Assembly: GCA_963422375.2 (NCBI GenBank)
Contig: OY729428.2
Coordinates: 640,001-704,000 of the forward strand
Direction: 5' to 3'
DNA from: Bryobacterales bacterium
GTDB lineage: Bacteria; Acidobacteriota; Terriglobia; Bryobacterales; UBA6623
Length of the DNA stretch: 64,000 nucleotides
In this document: piece by piece, positions 9,975-22,872 of the stretch
Layout of the letters: each line of letters begins with the position of its first letter
Position numbering within the stretch: the stretch's first letter is position 1
Translations under genes and position numbers: made by a program
The notes under the pieces: model-generated
Seen by the model: the letters and a program-made list of their open reading frames with translations, nothing else
What the model was told of the DNA's origin: nothing
The model's database searches: none

Positions 9975-10256
9975 CTAGCGCGCGCGGGCTATCTTCTTCG
10001 CCTTGCGGAACGAGTCGATTCCGAACCACGCGAACATGAGCGCGCCGACCCCCGACACGACGAGCCTAGTGAAGCTGTCGGGCAGCTGGCGGTACGCCTG
10101 GATGAACCCGAACGGGCCGAAGACGAAGAAGGCACCGAACGACAGGAAGACGAAGCCGACGATCTCGAGGCCCAGCTCGCGAGCGATCGACAGGAAGCGG
10201 GGCACCATCCTGCGGACGGCGTCGAGGCCCGCGCCGAAGGCCTTCGCGACCTGCAT
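9975..10256 (-). CDS. Small hypothetical membrane protein
   Basis: Two hydrophobic segments and a basic tail; ATG 10256 preceded by TAGCAT at 7 nt. Confidence 0.6.
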
Positions 10257-10347
10257 AACGAGAATGCTACCAGCAGCGGCGGCGTCGCGGCCGGGCGACC
10301 CGCTCGAGGCGGCCTGGGTCCGGCGAACCGAGACTATGCTGAGGCCC

Positions 10348-11403
10348 ATGGCAGGCTGTCACCGAGGTCGGTCCGCGATCTCGCTCGGTCGCGGCGCGCC
10401 GCGACCGCTGGCCGCCCTCGCCGCCTGCGCCGGGCTGCTCGCCGGTGTCGCGGGCGGCGGGGCGACGGAACGCGACTTCGAGCGACTGGTCGCCGAGGAG
10501 CCCCACATGGGGACTGTGGTGCGGATCGAAGCCTACATCCCCGGGGACGCGAGCGCTCCCAAGGCGTTCCGGGCCGCCTTCGACCGGATCGGATTCCTAG
10601 CGCGCAAGTTCTCGAGCTACCGGGAGGATTCCGAACTGCGGCAGGTCGAGAAGCGGGCGGGCCGCGCGCGGGTTTCCGTCTCCCACGAGTTCGCGTTCTT
10701 GCTCGGAGCGGCCCTGCGGATCGCTCGCGAGTCCGGAGGCGCGTTCGACCCCACGGTGGGCCGGGTGACCCGGCTCGCTCGCGCGGACGGATGGCGACGC
10801 GAGGGCCCGTCGGCGCGAGCCCTGCGCGAGGCGTGGCGGCGCACGGGGTGGCGGCGCGTGCGTCTTGACGAGACCAGCCGAAGCGTCCGCTTCGCCCGAC
10901 GGGGGATGCAGCTTGACCTAGGCGGAATCGCCAAAGGGTACATCGCCGACGAGGCGCTCGAGGCGCTCGCCAAGGCGGGGGCGCATCGGGCGATGGTTGC
11001 CGTGGCGGGCGACATCGCGGCGGGTGATCCGCCGCCGGGCGACTCCGGGTGGAGGATCGGCGTAGACGCCTCCGGGCCCGCCGGAAGCGTGGAGCGCCAC
11101 CTCCTGCTGGCCCGCCAAGCGGTGTCGGCGTCGGGAAGCCGGGAGCGACACTTCTACTCGGGCGGCCGCCGCTGCTCGCACATCGTCAACCGCAGGTCTC
11201 CCGAATGCACGGAGTCCCGGTCCGCGGTCAGCGTCGTCGCGCCGACCGGGCTGCTCGCGGACGGGCTGGCGACAGCCCTCGCCGCTCTGGGGCCGGACCG
11301 GGCCGAGCCGCTGCTGGCGAGGCATCCGGAAGTCGTCGCGTACTGGTCCGCCGACGGCCCCGGCGGGACCGAGGCAAGCGCCCGTTCGGGCCGGGAGCGA
11401 TGA
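10348..11403 (+). CDS. apbE: FAD:protein FMN transferase (ApbE family)
   Basis: Signal-like N-terminus, [36 protein letters not shown] motifs. Confidence 0.9.
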
Positions 11404-17458: not shown

Positions 17459-17533
<75 letters not shown>

Positions 17534-17565
17534 GATTTGCCGGACCTCCTAGCCCTTCGGTAGCT

Positions 17566-17641
17566 TGGAGCGGGAGACGGGACTCGAACCCGCGACATCG
17601 ACCTTGGCAAGGTCGCACTCTACCAACTGAGTTACTCCCGC
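17566..17641 (-). tRNA. tRNA-Gly(GCC)
   Basis: GCGGGAGTAACTCAGTTGGTAGAGTGCGACCTTGCCAAGGTCG...GTTCGAGTCC...CCCGCTCCA. Confidence 0.97.
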
Positions 17642-17822: not shown

Positions 17823-18818
17823 ATGCCGAGCATGGAGTTCAGAATCCGAGTTCGTCGAGCGGCTCTGCGCCTGCACCGCTCGATCCGCGAGGCGCGGATG
17901 ATCGCCAAGGCGCTGGTGGACACCGACCATCCGGTGCTGGCGCACCTAATTCCTACCCGGCGCTGCAACATCGCTTGCGCGTACTGCAACGAGTACGACG
18001 ACTTCTCGCGGCCGGTGCCGATCGACGTCCTCTGCCGCCGGACCGACCGCCTCGCGGACCTAGGCGTCAGCGTCGTCACGCTCAGCGGCGGCGAGCCGAT
18101 GCTCCATCCGCAGCTCGACGACCTGATCCGCCGCATCCGGGAGCGCAGGATGATCGCTGGCCTGATCACCAACGGGTACCTGCTCGGGCCCCGTCGCATC
18201 AGGCAGCTCAACGACGCAGGCCTGGAGTACCTCCAGATCAGCATCGACAATGTCGTGCCCGACGAGACGTCCATGAAGAGCTTGCGCGTGCTGGACCAAA
18301 AGCTCGCCATGCTATCCGAGCACGCCGACTTCGACGTGAACATCAACTCCGTGGTGGGCGCAGGCATCCCGAATCCCGGGGACGCCTATGCGGTGGCTCG
18401 GCGGGCGCTGGATCTCGGCTTCACCAGCACCGTCGGAGTCATCCACGACAGCGACGGCCAGCTGCGGCCGCTAGGAAGGACCGAACGGCAGGTTTACAAC
18501 CAAGTCAAGGCCCTCTCCAAGCGCGGCTACAGCCGCCTGACTTTCTTCCAGGACAATCTCGTGGAAGGAAGAACGAACAAGTGGTCCTGCCGGGCGGGCG
18601 CCCGCTACCTCTACGTGTGCGAGGACGGCCTGGTCCACTACTGCTCGCAGCAGAGAGGCACCCCGGGCATTCCCTTGGAAGAATACGGCGTCGCGGACAT
18701 TCGCGGGGCGTACAAGACACCCAAGTCCTGCGCTCCGGCCTGCACGGTGTCGTGCGTCCACAAGGCGTCCGCCGTGGACTTCTGGCGGGATCACCACCGG
18801 CCCCCCGCCCGAGTTTGA
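17823..18818 (+). CDS. Radical SAM protein with Cys-rich C-terminal extension
   Basis: CNIACAYC, SGGEP, ITNG motifs; C-terminal CRAG...YC...CAPACTVSC; TATAAT upstream at 17760. Confidence 0.88.
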   Translation: MPSMEFRIRVRRAALRLHRSIREARMIAKALVDTDHPVLAHLIPTRRCNIACAYCNEYDDFSRPVPIDVLCRRTDRLADLGVSVVTLSGGEPMLHPQLDDLIRRIRERRMIAGLITNGYLLGPRRIRQLNDAGLEYLQISIDNVVPDETSMKSLRVLDQKLAMLSEHADFDVNINSVVGAGIPNPGDAYAVARRALDLGFTSTVGVIHDSDGQLRPLGRTERQVYNQVKALSKRGYSRLTFFQDNLVEGRTNKWSCRAGARYLYVCEDGLVHYCSQQRGTPGIPLEEYGVADIRGAYKTPKSCAPACTVSCVHKASAVDFWRDHHRPPARV

Positions 18819-18838
18819 GGCACGGGCCGCCCGGTCCG

Positions 18839-20170
18839 TCAATCGGTCGGCAGCCAGCCGCAGTCCCTGCCCTCCGCGCATAGAAACACGCGACCCCCGG
18901 GAATCGGGTGCGCCCGCGCCCAAGCCTCGCCGTTGACGAGCAGCGCCGTCGACCAAGCCTCCGTGTCGATGGCCAGCGGGGCGATAACAGAAACCGCGGC
19001 CACTCCGGCCGCGGGCCGCCCCGAGCGGGGATCGATAATGTGGCCGTATCGCTTCCCGCCCTTCTCGAAGAACGATTCGTACGACCCCGATGCCGAAAGC
19101 GCCTCGTCCCTTAGAGTCACGGTGGCCACCGGCCTGCCGTCGCTCCGCGGGCCGCGCAGGTCCAAGCTCCATCCCCCGCCGTCCGGAGGCGCCCCTAGCG
19201 CGAACACGCTGCTGCCGCCCGAGCTGACCAGCGCGGCCTCGATGCCCCGCGCGCGAAGAGCTGCGACCGCCCGGTCCACCGCGTAACCCTTCCCGATCCC
19301 GCCCGGATCCAGCAAAAGGCTCGACCGCCGGAATCGAACGGTGCGCTCGTGCCGGTTCAACTCGAGGTGGCGGTAGCCGCTGTTCCGCCGGGCCCGCCAG
19401 AGGGTCCAAGGCCACGGCATGACCCCATCGCCCTTGTAGAATCCCCACGCGCTGACCAAGGCCCCGACCGTGATGTCGAAGGCCCCTTCGGTTTCCCGCG
19501 CATAGCGCAGGCAGCGGTCGAGCAGGTCCGCCATCTCCGGCGAGATCTTGACCGGGCCGCGGGCCGCCTCGCGGTTGATGCGGCTGAGCTCGCTGTCCTG
19601 CTTGTAATTGCTCAGGAAGGCGTCCACGCGGCGGGCCTCGTCAAAGGCCGCGGTGACCGCGCCGGCCGCCGCGCTCTTGGTGGATGCGTAGCAAGCGATG
19701 CGGAACTCGCTGCCCATGATGGCCGACGACAACTCCAAGCGCTCCAACCCGAGCGCGTAGGCTGGCGAGGCGAACTGCAGGGCCGTCGCGGCCAAGACGG
19801 CAGCCAGTCCCTTGCGGATCCGCTTGCGGATCCGATCCAGCAGCTCGTCCATGCGCCGCGCATGCCGCTCTCCCAGGTCGAGCGCGAAGCGCAGCTCCGG
19901 GACGTGGCGCATGCGCAGGCTCTGCGCCAGCGCCTTGCGAATGAAGGGGGTGGCCCGCTCCAGCGCCTCCACCGGCCGCGGGTCCGCTTCCGCAGGGGTC
20001 GCCGGATCCCACGGCGCGACGAAGACGCGGGCGGAGCGCTTGTCCGGCGACAAGACAACCCGGCTTACACGCACGGCCGCCACGTCCGGGTCGCGAACTT
20101 CGCCCGCCACGATCCGCGTCAGCTCCCGCAGAAGCGTGCTCTCGGCGCGGTCGTGCCTGAACGACGGCAT
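18839..20170 (-). CDS. rbfA: RbfA (30S ribosome-binding factor A) fused to an ApbE-family flavin transferase
   Basis: aa 1-117: EVRDP...VSRVVLSPDKRSARVFV...FIRKAL...LRMRHVPELRFALD (RbfA); aa 115-139 signal-like segment; aa 140-443: MGS, GAFDITVG, LDPGGIGKGYAVD, HIIDPRSG (ApbE). Confidence 0.85.
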   Translation of the reverse strand: MPSFRHDRAESTLLRELTRIVAGEVRDPDVAAVRVSRVVLSPDKRSARVFVAPWDPATPAEADPRPVEALERATPFIRKALAQSLRMRHVPELRFALDLGERHARRMDELLDRIRKRIRKGLAAVLAATALQFASPAYALGLERLELSSAIMGSEFRIACYASTKSAAAGAVTAAFDEARRVDAFLSNYKQDSELSRINREAARGPVKISPEMADLLDRCLRYARETEGAFDITVGALVSAWGFYKGDGVMPWPWTLWRARRNSGYRHLELNRHERTVRFRRSSLLLDPGGIGKGYAVDRAVAALRARGIEAALVSSGGSSVFALGAPPDGGGWSLDLRGPRSDGRPVATVTLRDEALSASGSYESFFEKGGKRYGHIIDPRSGRPAAGVAAVSVIAPLAIDTEAWSTALLVNGEAWARAHPIPGGRVFLCAEGRDCGWLPTD

Positions 20171-21144
20171 TCCTCGTGCCCATCATGGCACAGGGCTTCC
20201 GGCCCGCGGGACGTAGGAACGGCGGGGAGCGCGGCGGGGAGACGCGGCGACAGGATCGAATCGGGCGGAAACCGAAGCGGATCGGAGTTGAGCGAATCCG
20301 GGCTCAAGCCAGATTCATCTGCCCCCAACACTTGGCGAGGAGCGGGCGGACTGGATGGCATGCAGGTACTCTTCGCCGGCCCGGTCAACCGGCCGCCGTA
20401 CTCCCGTGCGTGCGAATTCCGAGCAGTGCAGTGCGCAGGACAGGAAACCATCATGGCGGTCGGCTCGCCTTGCCCGCCGAAGGTGAGTTTCCGCCCTACC
20501 CTTCGCGCCTCTTGGACTCGATTACCGACACTATTCTTCGCAGAAATTCTTTGCAGAATGCGATCTCAACTAGAGGCACCAATAGGCTTCTACTTCGACT
20601 GACTCGTAGATTCATTGTCTTTCAGTCGTGACAGCCATCGCCGAAAGACTTCACCGAAATCGCTGGCGAGACCGTTCTGGGCGGGGTGGCGCCGGGCCGC
20701 CACTTGCCAGCGAAGCGCTGGATCGCCTGCCTGCTCGACGCCGGCACCGCGGTCACGCTTGCGCGGCGATCGACCGGCCCTCGAAGGGAAGGTCGCTCAA
20801 GCGTTCGAAGCGCGCGAGGGCCTTGGGCAGGGACACCGGGCGGCGGCAGTCCACGCGGGCCGCTCGCAGCAGCGTCACGCCGCAGAGCGCAGTAGCGCCC
20901 GAAGGGCCGCCTCCGGCTCAAGCGGACGACCGCCGGTCTGAGGCGGGACAGCGCACGGCGGTGACCGGGAAGGCATTCGCGTTGCCCCTGACGCCTGCCG
21001 ACATGTCCTCCGGCGCCAGCTCGTGCAGGCCTGGCACCGCGGGCGGCAGCGGCGGGAATCGCAGCGCGGTCCGCACACAAGCCGCGCGGCCGCGGACCGC
21101 CCCGCAGGGAGCCGGTGTGCAATTCTGAGAAGAGTGGGGCGTGC

Positions 21145-21816
21145 GTGGAGGAAGGCGGTTCGGGGGAGACGATCGCGCTCGCGCTAGAGGTCGCGGGGGA
21201 CGGAGACGCGCTGCGCTCCATCTCCGATGTGATCGCCAGACGGGGCGCTCGCGTCACGTGGATCTCGATACTTGACCCGCAGAAGGTCATCGAGACGATT
21301 CTGGTGGAGCTGGTCGGCGTGCCGGACCTGCCCAGCCTGGTCGCGGCGCTCCACGCGCTCGACTGCGTGCGCTCCGCGTCGAGGAAGCACGCGCTGCATC
21401 AGATTTTCGGCAAGCGTATCATCATCATCGGCGGCGGTTCGCAAGTGGGCCAAGTCGCCCTAGGCGCCGTGTCCGAGGCGGACCGGCACAACCTCCGCGG
21501 CGAGCGGATCTCGATCGACACGATTCCGCTGGTCGGGGAGCCGCGACTGGCGGAGGCGGTCCGCGCCACGGCGAGGCTCCCGCGCGTGGAAGCGGTCGTC
21601 CTGGCCGGAGCCCTGATGGGCGGAGAGATCACGGAGGCGGTGAAAGAAGTGCAGGCCAAGGGCCTGCTGGTGATCTCGCTCAACATGGCAGGCTCGGTGC
21701 CGGCCGCGGCCGACCTCGTCGTGACGGACCCGGTCCAGGCCGGCGTCATGGCGGTCATGGCGGTGGCCCACACCGCGGAATTCGACGTCCCGAGGCTCGG
21801 CGGACGCCGCTTCTGA
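21145..21816 (+). CDS. ACT-like + DUF5612 domain protein (archaeal-type putative metabolic regulator)
   Basis: IFGKRIIIIGGGSQVGQVALGAVSEADRHNLRGERISIDTIPLVGE...LAGALMGG...SLNMAGSV...VTDPVQAGVMAVM. Confidence 0.82.
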   Translation: MEEGGSGETIALALEVAGDGDALRSISDVIARRGARVTWISILDPQKVIETILVELVGVPDLPSLVAALHALDCVRSASRKHALHQIFGKRIIIIGGGSQVGQVALGAVSEADRHNLRGERISIDTIPLVGEPRLAEAVRATARLPRVEAVVLAGALMGGEITEAVKEVQAKGLLVISLNMAGSVPAAADLVVTDPVQAGVMAVMAVAHTAEFDVPRLGGRRF

Positions 21817-21864
21817 AGCCGGAGCGACGGCGCGGCACCGTGCCGCGAGTTGGTACACTTTGGC

Positions 21865-22872
21865 TTGCCCGCCAACCGGAGAATCGTCCTCGCATCCCGC
21901 CCCGTCGGCATGCCGACGCCGGACGACTTCCGCCTCGAGGGCAGGCCCGTGCGAGAGCCCTCCGACGGAGAATGCCTCGTGCGCGTGTCGTACCTTTCGG
22001 TCGACCCCTACATGCGGGGGCGGATCAGCGGCCGCAAGTCGTACGCCGCGCCCGTTGCACTCGGGCAGACGATCGTGGGCGCGGCCGTCGGGCGCGTCCT
22101 CCAATCCAAGTGCGAGGAATTCAAGGCCGGGGAGTACGTGACCGGCAACCTCGGCTGGCAGGAGTACGCCACCCCGAGGGCCGACATCCTGCGGCGCGTC
22201 GAACCCGATGCCGCGCCCCTTTCCGCTTACCTCGGCGTGCTCGGCATGCCCGGGCTCACCGCCTACTACGGCCTGCTCAAGGTGGCCGGCGTGTCGCCGG
22301 GCGAGACCGTATGCGTTTCCGGGGCGGCCGGCGCCGTGGGCTCCGCCGTCGGCCAGATCGCGCTTCTGAAGGGCTGCCGGGCGGTCGGCATCGCCGGAGG
22401 CCCGCGCAAGTGCGCGTGGATCGCCGAGAGGCTAGGCTTCGATGCGGCGGTCGACTACAAGGGAGAGGACGTCGGCAGGGCCCTCGCGAGCGCCTGCCCC
22501 GACGGCGTGGACGTGTATTTCGACAACGTCGGCGGCCCCGTGACCGACGCCGTGTTCCCGCATCTTAACGTCAGGTCCCGGGTGGCGATCTGCGGCCAGA
22601 TCTCCCAGTACAATGCCATCGACGCGCCGGTGGGCCCGCGGCTGCTGTGGCATTTCATCGTCAAGCGCATCCGGGCCCAAGGCTTTCTGGTATTCGACTT
22701 CCGGGAGCACGACCGCGAAGCGCTCGCCGAAATGGCCGCCTGGGTCCGCGACGGCCGCGTCAAGTACGCAGAGACCGTCGCGGAAGGCATCGCGAACGCC
22801 CCCGCAGCCTTCATCGGCATGCTCGGCGGCGCAAACACCGGCAAGCAGGTTGTGAAGATCTCCGACGCCTGA
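21865..22872 (+). CDS. NADP-dependent oxidoreductase (CurA/prostaglandin reductase-like MDR)
   Basis: LSVDPYMRGR, LGMPGLTAY, SGAAGAVGS, YFDNVGG, CGQISQYN. Confidence 0.92.
   Translation: MPANRRIVLASRPVGMPTPDDFRLEGRPVREPSDGECLVRVSYLSVDPYMRGRISGRKSYAAPVALGQTIVGAAVGRVLQSKCEEFKAGEYVTGNLGWQEYATPRADILRRVEPDAAPLSAYLGVLGMPGLTAYYGLLKVAGVSPGETVCVSGAAGAVGSAVGQIALLKGCRAVGIAGGPRKCAWIAERLGFDAAVDYKGEDVGRALASACPDGVDVYFDNVGGPVTDAVFPHLNVRSRVAICGQISQYNAIDAPVGPRLLWHFIVKRIRAQGFLVFDFREHDREALAEMAAWVRDGRVKYAETVAEGIANAPAAFIGMLGGANTGKQVVKISDA

Follow-up and report, generated by a model that had tools for sequence, protein, structure and literature searches.

An RbfA–ApbE fusion with an internal signal-like segment, conserved in part of the order Bryobacterales

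How can a ribosome maturation factor that acts in the cytoplasm share one reading frame with a flavin transferase of the exported kind? This question is raised by a gene in the DNA analyzed here, a window of 64,000 nucleotides (positions 640,001 to 704,000 of contig OY729428.2, assembly GCA_963422375.2) from a Bryobacterales bacterium, in which rbfA and apbE are joined. To our knowledge, joining an exported enzyme to a soluble factor of the cytoplasm is normally considered unworkable. An earlier note had described a single uninterrupted frame of 443 residues encoding RbfA, a signal-like segment, and ApbE; matches to Pfam and TIGR00082 bear this out, and the junction is built as described. Collectively, the results presented below indicate that the fusion is real and old, that its likely mechanism has precedents, and that a regulatory coupling of the two halves is unsupported. 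The features of the gene are listed in Table 1.

Table 1. Positions, in the window, of the fused gene and its parts.
Feature	Position	Strand	Basis
rbfA::apbE fused gene, 443 aa	18839–20170	minus	one open frame; junction intact in contigs from two studies
RbfA part, residues 1–120: KH-II domain (Pfam 5–111) and C-terminal helix 100–119	19811–20170	minus	Pfam, model, Foldseek
RbfA basic tail, residues 113–120; putative n-region	19811–19834	minus	net positive in 36/37 fusions
Hydrophobic h-region, residues 121–131	19778–19810	minus	11-residue Kyte-Doolittle mean at least 1.97 in 37/37 fusions
c-region, residues 132–139, ending A137-Y138-A139; predicted signal peptidase I site before L140	19754–19777	minus	sequence
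ApbE/Ftp-fold flavin-transferase domain, residues 140–443; Glu404 at the Asp284 Mg site; Cys pair C431, C437	18842–19753	minus	
Extended −10-like motif, 11 nt ahead of the start codon; putative promoter	20182–20192	minus	17/17 genus relatives
In-frame ATG (M107), rejected as a conserved feature	19850–19852	minus	ATG in 3/36; no Shine-Dalgarno pairing

The protein contains two recognizable domains. PF02033 (RBFA) matches residues 5–111 with 79 bits against a cut-off of 34.7, TIGR00082 (rbfA) gives 69.8 against 51.15, and PF02424 (ApbE) matches residues 152–418 with 243 bits. The narrow NCBIfam equivalog for ApbE scores 159.6, below its cut-off of 498. Between the domains lies a basic, hydrophobic, and alanine-rich segment (residues 113–139), reading RIRKRIRK-GLAAVLAATALQF-ASPAYA up to the predicted cut and LGLERLE behind it. 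An AlphaFold model built on a 36-row alignment (mean predicted local distance difference test, 84.9; predicted TM-score, 0.67) shows two confident domains and a low-confidence stretch at residues 119–139, RbfA's C-terminal helix (residues 100–119) continuing directly into the h-region without a linker. Foldseek paired the RbfA part, in which the KH-II fold elements are present, with 1jos, 8bxa, and 2dyj, and the ApbE part with Ftp and FmnB (target TM-score 0.80–0.87 to the best; E-value 1e-25 to Ftp). The uncut precursor would be a 48-kDa protein.

The source genome (G000; 5,995,950 bases, 96% complete) yields a single RBFA match in a profile search, namely the fused gene, and three ApbE matches, the fused gene included. 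A second rbfA near infB, for which the earlier note had proposed a search, is not present: infB and DUF503 sit on another contig (C1) and are not followed by an rbfA. Contigs from two studies agree at the junction, which the earlier note had wanted verified in raw reads. Contigs from runs X1 and X3, which belong to one study and possibly to the DNA source itself, cover positions 18600–20500 with zero differences, and a contig from X5, of the second study, covers 19656–20257, including the junction, also with zero differences.

The fusion was then traced through three families of the order, i.e., the source family (f1), its sister family (f3), and a third family (f2); the source genus is denoted g1. 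All 34 full-length matches, the source protein among them, carry both Pfam domains, which puts the pairing well outside what chance would give, and the others are 59–73% identical to it across the N-terminal 150 residues. A word-based locus search returned a single true relative, which is full-length, 70% identical, and also fused. In a set of 61 genomes, 57 of which have an RBFA match (58 rows), the frame holding RbfA measures 380–535 residues in 35/35 cases from the source family and 436–503 in 6/6 from the sister family, as opposed to 118–194 in 17/17 from the third. The same division appears in a set of 251 genomes: among the 150 of 242 matches listed, all 40 frames from the source and sister families have at least 440 residues, and all 110 from the third family have at most 318 (one of these, from the unpublished genome G215, enters no other count). 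On direct inspection, RbfA and ApbE occupy one frame in 31/31 loci of the source family, 6/6 of the sister family, and 0/30 of the third. Four further loci of the source family are also fused, giving 35/35 for that family and 41/41 for both, so that the fusion does recur in related genomes as the earlier note had asked. A search among shorter proteins gave two matches in 116 candidates, both of them truncated fusions. Single-base frameshifts exist in some related assemblies (G119, where the shift falls late in ApbE, and G188; the proteins P0020, P0185, and P0186 are truncated), and these would suit an explanation by sequencing or assembly error or by a recent stop-loss in one strain. Such an explanation is refuted by the conservation across genera and by the identical junctions, and its probability is negligible.

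Outside the order, no apbE was found behind rbfA in 14 loci (13 informative), and the full-length fusion profile had no match in 120 other genomes of the phylum. A class-wide sample of 148 rows contains long frames only in G000, G061, and G304; the 536-residue frame of G304 was rejected as a fusion, since it runs on openly upstream of rbfA, and the gene is cut off by the end of its contig. Among 1.84 billion representatives of 50% clusters, four of the best 150 match the fusion profile end to end, and all four group with the source family in the ApbE tree. As far as searched, the fusion is confined to part of one order and is conserved across two families. Two observations concern individual genomes of the survey. 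Locus L050 (G122), labeled as genus g31, is nearly identical to G077 (genus g4) in both the InfB and ApbE trees; G122 may be a mixed bin or carry a wrong label, and hence gives no evidence for both states within g31. Two equal-scoring RbfA frames occur in G003 (C1 and C3) and in G145 (C5, twice), reflecting either duplication or assembly redundancy.

The third family reveals how the two genes were brought together. Its gene order is infB-DUF503-rbfA-apbE-hemE; in 23/30 loci, the gene that follows rbfA on the same strand is an apbE of the same subfamily, equipped with its own N-terminal signal peptide. The sister family and most genera of the source family retain infB-DUF503-rbfA::apbE. The unfused arrangement thus resembles the fusions in its ApbE subfamily, its order behind infB-DUF503, and the build of its signal. 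It differs in keeping the genes apart, rbfA ending at a stop and apbE having its own start, often with an overlap (the apbE start is often a GTG formed in the last Arg-Gly codons of rbfA), and in having hemE directly behind apbE in 20/22 rbfA-apbE loci, an order seen in no fused locus. The fusion arose from the adjacent rbfA and apbE of the infB operon. For the unfused loci, +1 frameshifting was considered and rejected: an ATG, GTG, or TTG lies within 20 codons of the h-region in 20/22, so ordinary overlapping starts explain the overlap. Only in the source genus and in genus g29 is infB not beside the fused gene in the loci read, and this infB-free context is a later relocation. The earlier claim of an unusual gene context holds for the source genome but not for the fused lineages read outside these two genera.

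When rooted on 13 genomes of other orders, the InfB tree groups the source and sister families together against the third (SH-aLRT 95), which fits a single fusion. ApbE trees place the sister family next to the third instead, with support of 99 unrooted, 87 rooted, and 50 in a thinned set, but the ApbE data do not reject the grouping of the source and sister families (p-AU 0.5); all trees are quick searches without bootstrap. One fusion event would be the simplest reading, and two separate fusions, or an older fusion split again in the third family, are possible.

The relocated gene appears to have its own control region. In the source genus, an extended −10-like motif precedes the ATG by 11 nt, with identical spacing in 17/17 genes, and TG-n-TAnnnT sites genome-wide peak 6–7 and 11 nt ahead of long ATG frames. 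This motif is probably a promoter that the gene acquired on its departure from the infB operon; a scan with the sigma-70 consensus found no full promoter. The peaks at 6–7 and 11 nt in G000 suggest many leaderless or short-leader genes, and further peaks at 23 and 40 nt in that genome probably stem from repeats. In several loci of the third family (L009, L010, L021, L067, L068, and L075), the signal-coding region of the unfused apbE is A+T-rich, and these junctions share a stretch resembling an extended −10 element, which could reflect either a bias of start regions or an internal promoter.

The segment between the two domains was compared in 37 fusions and 22 unfused orthologues, with the cut-site motifs tested on 40 sequences. 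The best 11-residue hydropathy reaches at least 1.97 in every fusion, a value reached by 1–13% of control windows (controls of 40 residues, a test window of 70, mostly RbfA). The eight residues ahead of the h-region are net positive in 36/37 fusions. The h-region starts a median of 21 residues before a conserved ApbE arginine in the fusions and 21.5 in the unfused orthologues, the uncharged run measures 18.5 versus 18 residues, and alanine makes up 32% versus 27% of the c-region. Since both its position and its build match those of the unfused signal peptides, the segment looks like a kept general secretory (Sec) signal. The hydrophobicity is kept while the linker sequence turns over fast. The suggestion of the earlier note that the RbfA tail acts as a positively charged n-region agrees with this, the segment sitting where unfused apbE orthologues have their signal peptide. 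The 19-residue hydropathy mean is 1.57, staying below 1.6 in 20/37 fusions, which is low for a span that would anchor the protein permanently.

Purifying selection acts on both domains. In 11 close pairs, the nonsynonymous-to-synonymous ratio (dN/dS) is 0.09–0.24 for RbfA and 0.10–0.25 for ApbE, and pN/pS over 136 pairs of the source genus is 0.37 for RbfA, 0.70 for the linker, and 0.32 for ApbE (codon analysis of 36 sequences, with G119 dropped). RbfA evolves 2.8 times as fast as InfB in the source family, 2.0 times in the sister family, 2.5 times in the unfused third family, and 1.9 times outside the order; by these ratios, no clear relaxation of RbfA upon fusion is apparent.

The RbfA half shares with its family (PF02033, TIGR00082; 1jos, 8bxa, and 8byv) the KH-II fold, the core residues, the C-terminal helix, the fact that no other copy exists, and, for the majority of fused lineages, a place behind infB-DUF503. 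RbfA as known is a protein of one domain and 13–15 kDa, as stated in part of PMC9032327, whereas here it heads a 443-residue precursor. Two motifs also differ in the source genus. The AxG kink reads A-T-P in the source protein, with Pro in 16/17 members of the genus and Gly in 16/18 other members of the source family; unfused RbfAs of the third family have His in 13, Gly in 7, and Pro in 3 of 30 at this third position. In the D-P-R loop, D27 and P28 are present in the source protein, and the Arg is kept in 1/17 members of the source genus and 6/6 of the sister family. Both motifs touch the 3′ end of 16S rRNA, according to passages of PMC9917171. F76, equivalent to the reference residue Phe78 of Escherichia coli RbfA (excerpts of PMC8177701), is kept in 17/17 members of the genus.

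The ApbE half keeps the fold of ApbE/Ftp proteins (PF02424; TP0796, E. coli Ftp, and Listeria FmnB) and most of the mapped residues. On Treponema pallidum Ftp, Y189, K294, S361, E365, H377, and T408 of the fused protein correspond to positions 55 (Tyr), 165, 240, 244, 256, and 288, respectively; the roles of the Ftp residues are described in sections of PMC4436053, in which D284A abolishes Ftp activity. At this Mg ligand, the subfamily departs from its relatives: Asp284 is replaced by Glu (E404 in the source protein) in 72/72 members, fused or unfused, whereas Asp is present in 119/143 other ApbEs and in both paralogues of the source genome. Since unfused orthologues also have Glu at 284, the change of the metal site predates the fusion. 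Directly ahead of hemE in the third family, it is likewise the subfamily with Glu284 that is found. Position 288 is Thr in 34/34 fusions of the source family but Lys in the third family, the sister family, and a clade lacking RbfA that is described below, and position 245, a Ser in the source protein, is Lys or Arg in 33/34 fusions of the source family. Further differences from known ApbE/Ftp proteins are an internal signal, no lipobox, no adjoining substrate gene, and an additional C-terminal Cys pair. Every one of the 40 fused sequences has this pair, as do the 10 RbfA-less ones, and unfused orthologues have its first Cys in 22/22 and its second in 17/22 cases; its retention suits an oxidizing compartment. 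The fused ApbE is best described as an orphan variant of the ApbE fold with a predicted transferase function, and the activity or substrate of the subfamily has possibly changed. A lipoprotein or twin-arginine translocation (Tat) signal was rejected, as a lipobox-like motif occurs in 1/40 sequences and a Tat-like motif in 0/40. A link to flavinylation of the sodium-pumping NADH:quinone oxidoreductase was also rejected, because the nqr (Na-NQR) operon (G000:C3:324000-331500, L121), which holds the only FMN-bind match of the genome, has its own canonical apbE. Another ApbE with the canonical Asp and Thr ligands is encoded 7 kb from the fusion (window 10003–11403, plus strand); its long N-terminal open frame is probably not wholly coding.

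The relation between the halves is further illuminated by genomes that have dispensed with the first. No RBFA match exists in 12/74 genomes of the source family. In two of them (G021 and G130), the orthologue is absent entirely. The other ten (G036, G032, G065, G105, G086, G108, G098, G114, G112, and G116; loci L086-L089 and L095-L100) are near-complete, four of them on a single contig, and read infB-DUF503-apbE. They retain the hydrophobic signal ahead of ApbE, behind a new start codon, and no RbfA remnant was detected in the four loci scanned closely. These ten genomes form one clade (support 97–99), in which RbfA is dispensable. The loss of RbfA with signal and ApbE kept indicates that the signal-plus-ApbE half stands as a unit. 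The Lys at position 288, shared with the third and sister families, suggests that this clade is an early branch of the source family; whether it descends through a fused state depends on the branching at the base of that family.

How the precursor is handled can be proposed from these features. With a probability of roughly 0.55, we favor a precursor that spans the membrane and is cut into a cytoplasmic RbfA and an exported ApbE. RbfA would fold in the cytoplasm, and its basic tail would set an N-in orientation; the internal signal, formerly the signal peptide of ApbE, would enter the membrane by the Sec route while RbfA stays inside. A cut by signal peptidase I near A139 would then release ApbE outside, and an intramembrane protease, probably RseP, would trim the signal remnant and free RbfA for 30S subunits. 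RbfA is conserved, and its place of action must be the cytoplasm. Two genes for signal peptidase I and a single rseP are present in the source genome. As set out in portions of PMC10470546, RseP clears away remnant signal peptides and also cleaves spans of N-in/C-out orientation. In the Staphylococcus aureus protein, RbfA's C-terminal helix docks on uS7 of the 30S head (passages of PMC9917171); since the equivalent helix 100–119 abuts the h-region here, a lasting tether looks sterically awkward.

Two systems offer parallels. Bacillus subtilis RsiV, as described in part of PMC6066255, also has a cytoplasmic N-terminal part, one span, and an internal signal peptidase site (A66), and is cut behind its cytoplasmic domain by signal peptidase and then by RasP, a site-2 protease. 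Cleavage of RsiV is ligand-gated and destroys an inhibitor, whereas in the fusion it is predicted to be constitutive and must leave RbfA intact. The other parallel is a merger of operon neighbours. FbcH of Bradyrhizobium japonicum is reportedly a cytochrome b–c1 precursor with an internal signal sequence that is cut into two proteins; it would share with the fusion a single bacterial frame in which the downstream signal peptide is kept inside. FbcH joins two subunits of one membrane complex, however, and the fusion joins a ribosome factor to an unrelated exported enzyme, its cleavage being only predicted. Searches of the literature on FbcH and on bacterial polyproteins with an internal signal found nothing relevant.

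Several points weigh against the cleaved precursor. Topology, cleavage, and release are predictions from sequence. The h-region of the fusions is less hydrophobic on average than that of the unfused orthologues (2.49 versus 2.89), and in four relatives the basic tail is largely lost. In 34/40 sequences, against 29.4 in shuffles, the relaxed (−3,−1) rule holds, a weak enrichment (p about 0.03, the sequences being related). Strict A-x-A occurs in 15/40 against 13.8 in shuffles and was discarded as a sign of cleavage. In addition, the changed AxG and D-P-R motifs make the activity of RbfA in the source genus less than certain. As for the membrane-straddling, processed precursor of the earlier note, it is still the best reading, and its cut at A-x-A is plausible at a motif no commoner than in shuffles.

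An uncleaved signal-anchor, keeping the whole protein N-in/C-out with RbfA tethered inside and a periplasmic ApbE for which the span replaces the lipid anchor found on many ApbEs, is unlikely, though some points favor it. The A-x-A motif is not enriched, the 19-residue mean reaches 1.6 in 17/37 fusions, the subfamily has a lipobox in only 1/40 sequences, and in one genome of the sister family (G044; L013/L065) some 50 inserted residues, rich in Pro and Ala, separate the h-region from ApbE, as is often seen with tethered domains. On the other hand, the core is short, Gln, Pro, or Gly interrupts it, and it does not match the strength of unfused N-terminal signals; no linker separates the uS7-binding helix from the span. 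It is improbable that signal peptidase frees ApbE while RbfA stays on the signal remnant, working or idle at the membrane. Release cannot be read from sequence, RseP having no consensus in the parts of PMC10470546 that treat it, and RbfA is dispensable in one clade; nevertheless, signal remnants are normal RseP substrates in the same excerpts, and RbfA and ApbE experience equally strong selection. The signal may instead be dead and the whole protein cytoplasmic, with ApbE a passenger or a cytoplasmic flavin enzyme. This would accord with a signal placed 120 residues in, behind a folded domain, with its hydrophobicity below that of unfused orthologues, and with two other ApbEs in the genome that have canonical Mg ligands. 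Yet the hydrophobic core persists in 37/37 fusions of two families despite sequence turnover, the Cys pair is kept, and the RbfA-less clade retains the signal, which makes this reading quite improbable.

Two proteins could also be made without proteolysis, from an internal start or by programmed frameshifting or slippage at the junction. The earlier note had proposed a second isoform from the ATG at 19852, which lies in frame ahead of the basic tail, and in 20/37 fusions some ATG, GTG, or TTG occurs no more than 20 codons from the h-region. The candidate codons lie at varying places, however, and 17/37 fusions have none. Codon 107 is ATG in 3, ATC in 20, GTC in 5, GTG in 5, ATT in 2, and ATA in 1 of 36 sequences. 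Shine-Dalgarno pairing at M107 amounts to −2.6 kcal/mol and thus falls short of the −4.1 of random internal sites, and the A+T enrichment of real apbE starts (GC −0.17) is absent at the fusion junctions (−0.02). No shared slippery site or shared off-frame stop was found at the junction in 36 aligned fusions, and internal initiation would yield no free RbfA. The proposed isoform is thus not upheld, and the chance of any such scheme is slight. By analogy with RsiV, the supply of RbfA might further be gated by the envelope: RbfA would be made as a membrane protein whose release needs Sec, signal peptidase, and RseP, and the non-canonical ApbE would act as an outside flavin or redox sensor that governs whether the cut site can be reached, a part played by lysozyme for RsiV, so that 30S maturation would follow the state of the envelope. 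This is doubtful. No gating element for cleavage was found in the fused protein. Nor is the broader coupling of ribosome biogenesis to export or flavinylation, put forward in the earlier note, supported: rbfA and apbE adjoined each other before they fused, one clade gave up RbfA while retaining ApbE, and a canonical ApbE of its own belongs to the NQR operon. We infer that the fusion is the tolerated joining of overlapping genes of one operon, which sets their synthesis at 1:1, and not a regulatory link.

Around the fused gene, the window contains a convergent radical SAM gene (17823–18818, plus), which is a neighbour in several relatives of the source genus, and a divergent DUF5612 gene (21115–21816, plus) followed by a gene of the zinc-binding dehydrogenase family (21850–22872, plus), both recurring in several relatives of that genus. 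A tRNA-Gly and tRNA-Cys pair (17459–17641, minus) and an IS605-type TnpB/Cas12f1-like frame (PF07282, PF01385; 11812–12954, minus) are located nearby.

Full-text literature searches, whose coverage leaves out most subscription papers, returned no paper describing an RbfA–ApbE fusion, and none for 'ribosome-binding factor' with 'flavin transferase' or for ApbE, flavinylation, and Acidobacteria. The two proteins are mentioned together only in PMC3899948, as unrelated rows of a table in the part available. A flavinylation survey, PMC8238504, has no mention of fusion, fused, or Acidobacteria in the available passages and small supplementary files; its large gene-cluster table may list these loci. 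Domain-architecture databases probably already hold the RBFA and ApbE pairing silently, as precomputed Pfam columns show. Such proteins could be missed by surveys in which a gene is retained only if an N-terminal signal is predicted for it, as passages of PMC8238504 describe.

As by-products, the analysis yields an ApbE subfamily whose metal site is altered and which has no substrate gene beside it, and a clade of near-complete genomes in which no rbfA was found. For the fused lineages, a gene fixed across two bacterial families and carrying the only RbfA of the cell would represent an unusual supply route for a ribosome assembly factor. It offers a natural test of three abilities: that of Sec and signal peptidase to act on a signal lying behind a folded domain of 120 residues, that of RseP to set free a functional protein and not just a piece to be disposed of, and that of RbfA to cope with being tethered to the membrane by its uS7-docking helix.

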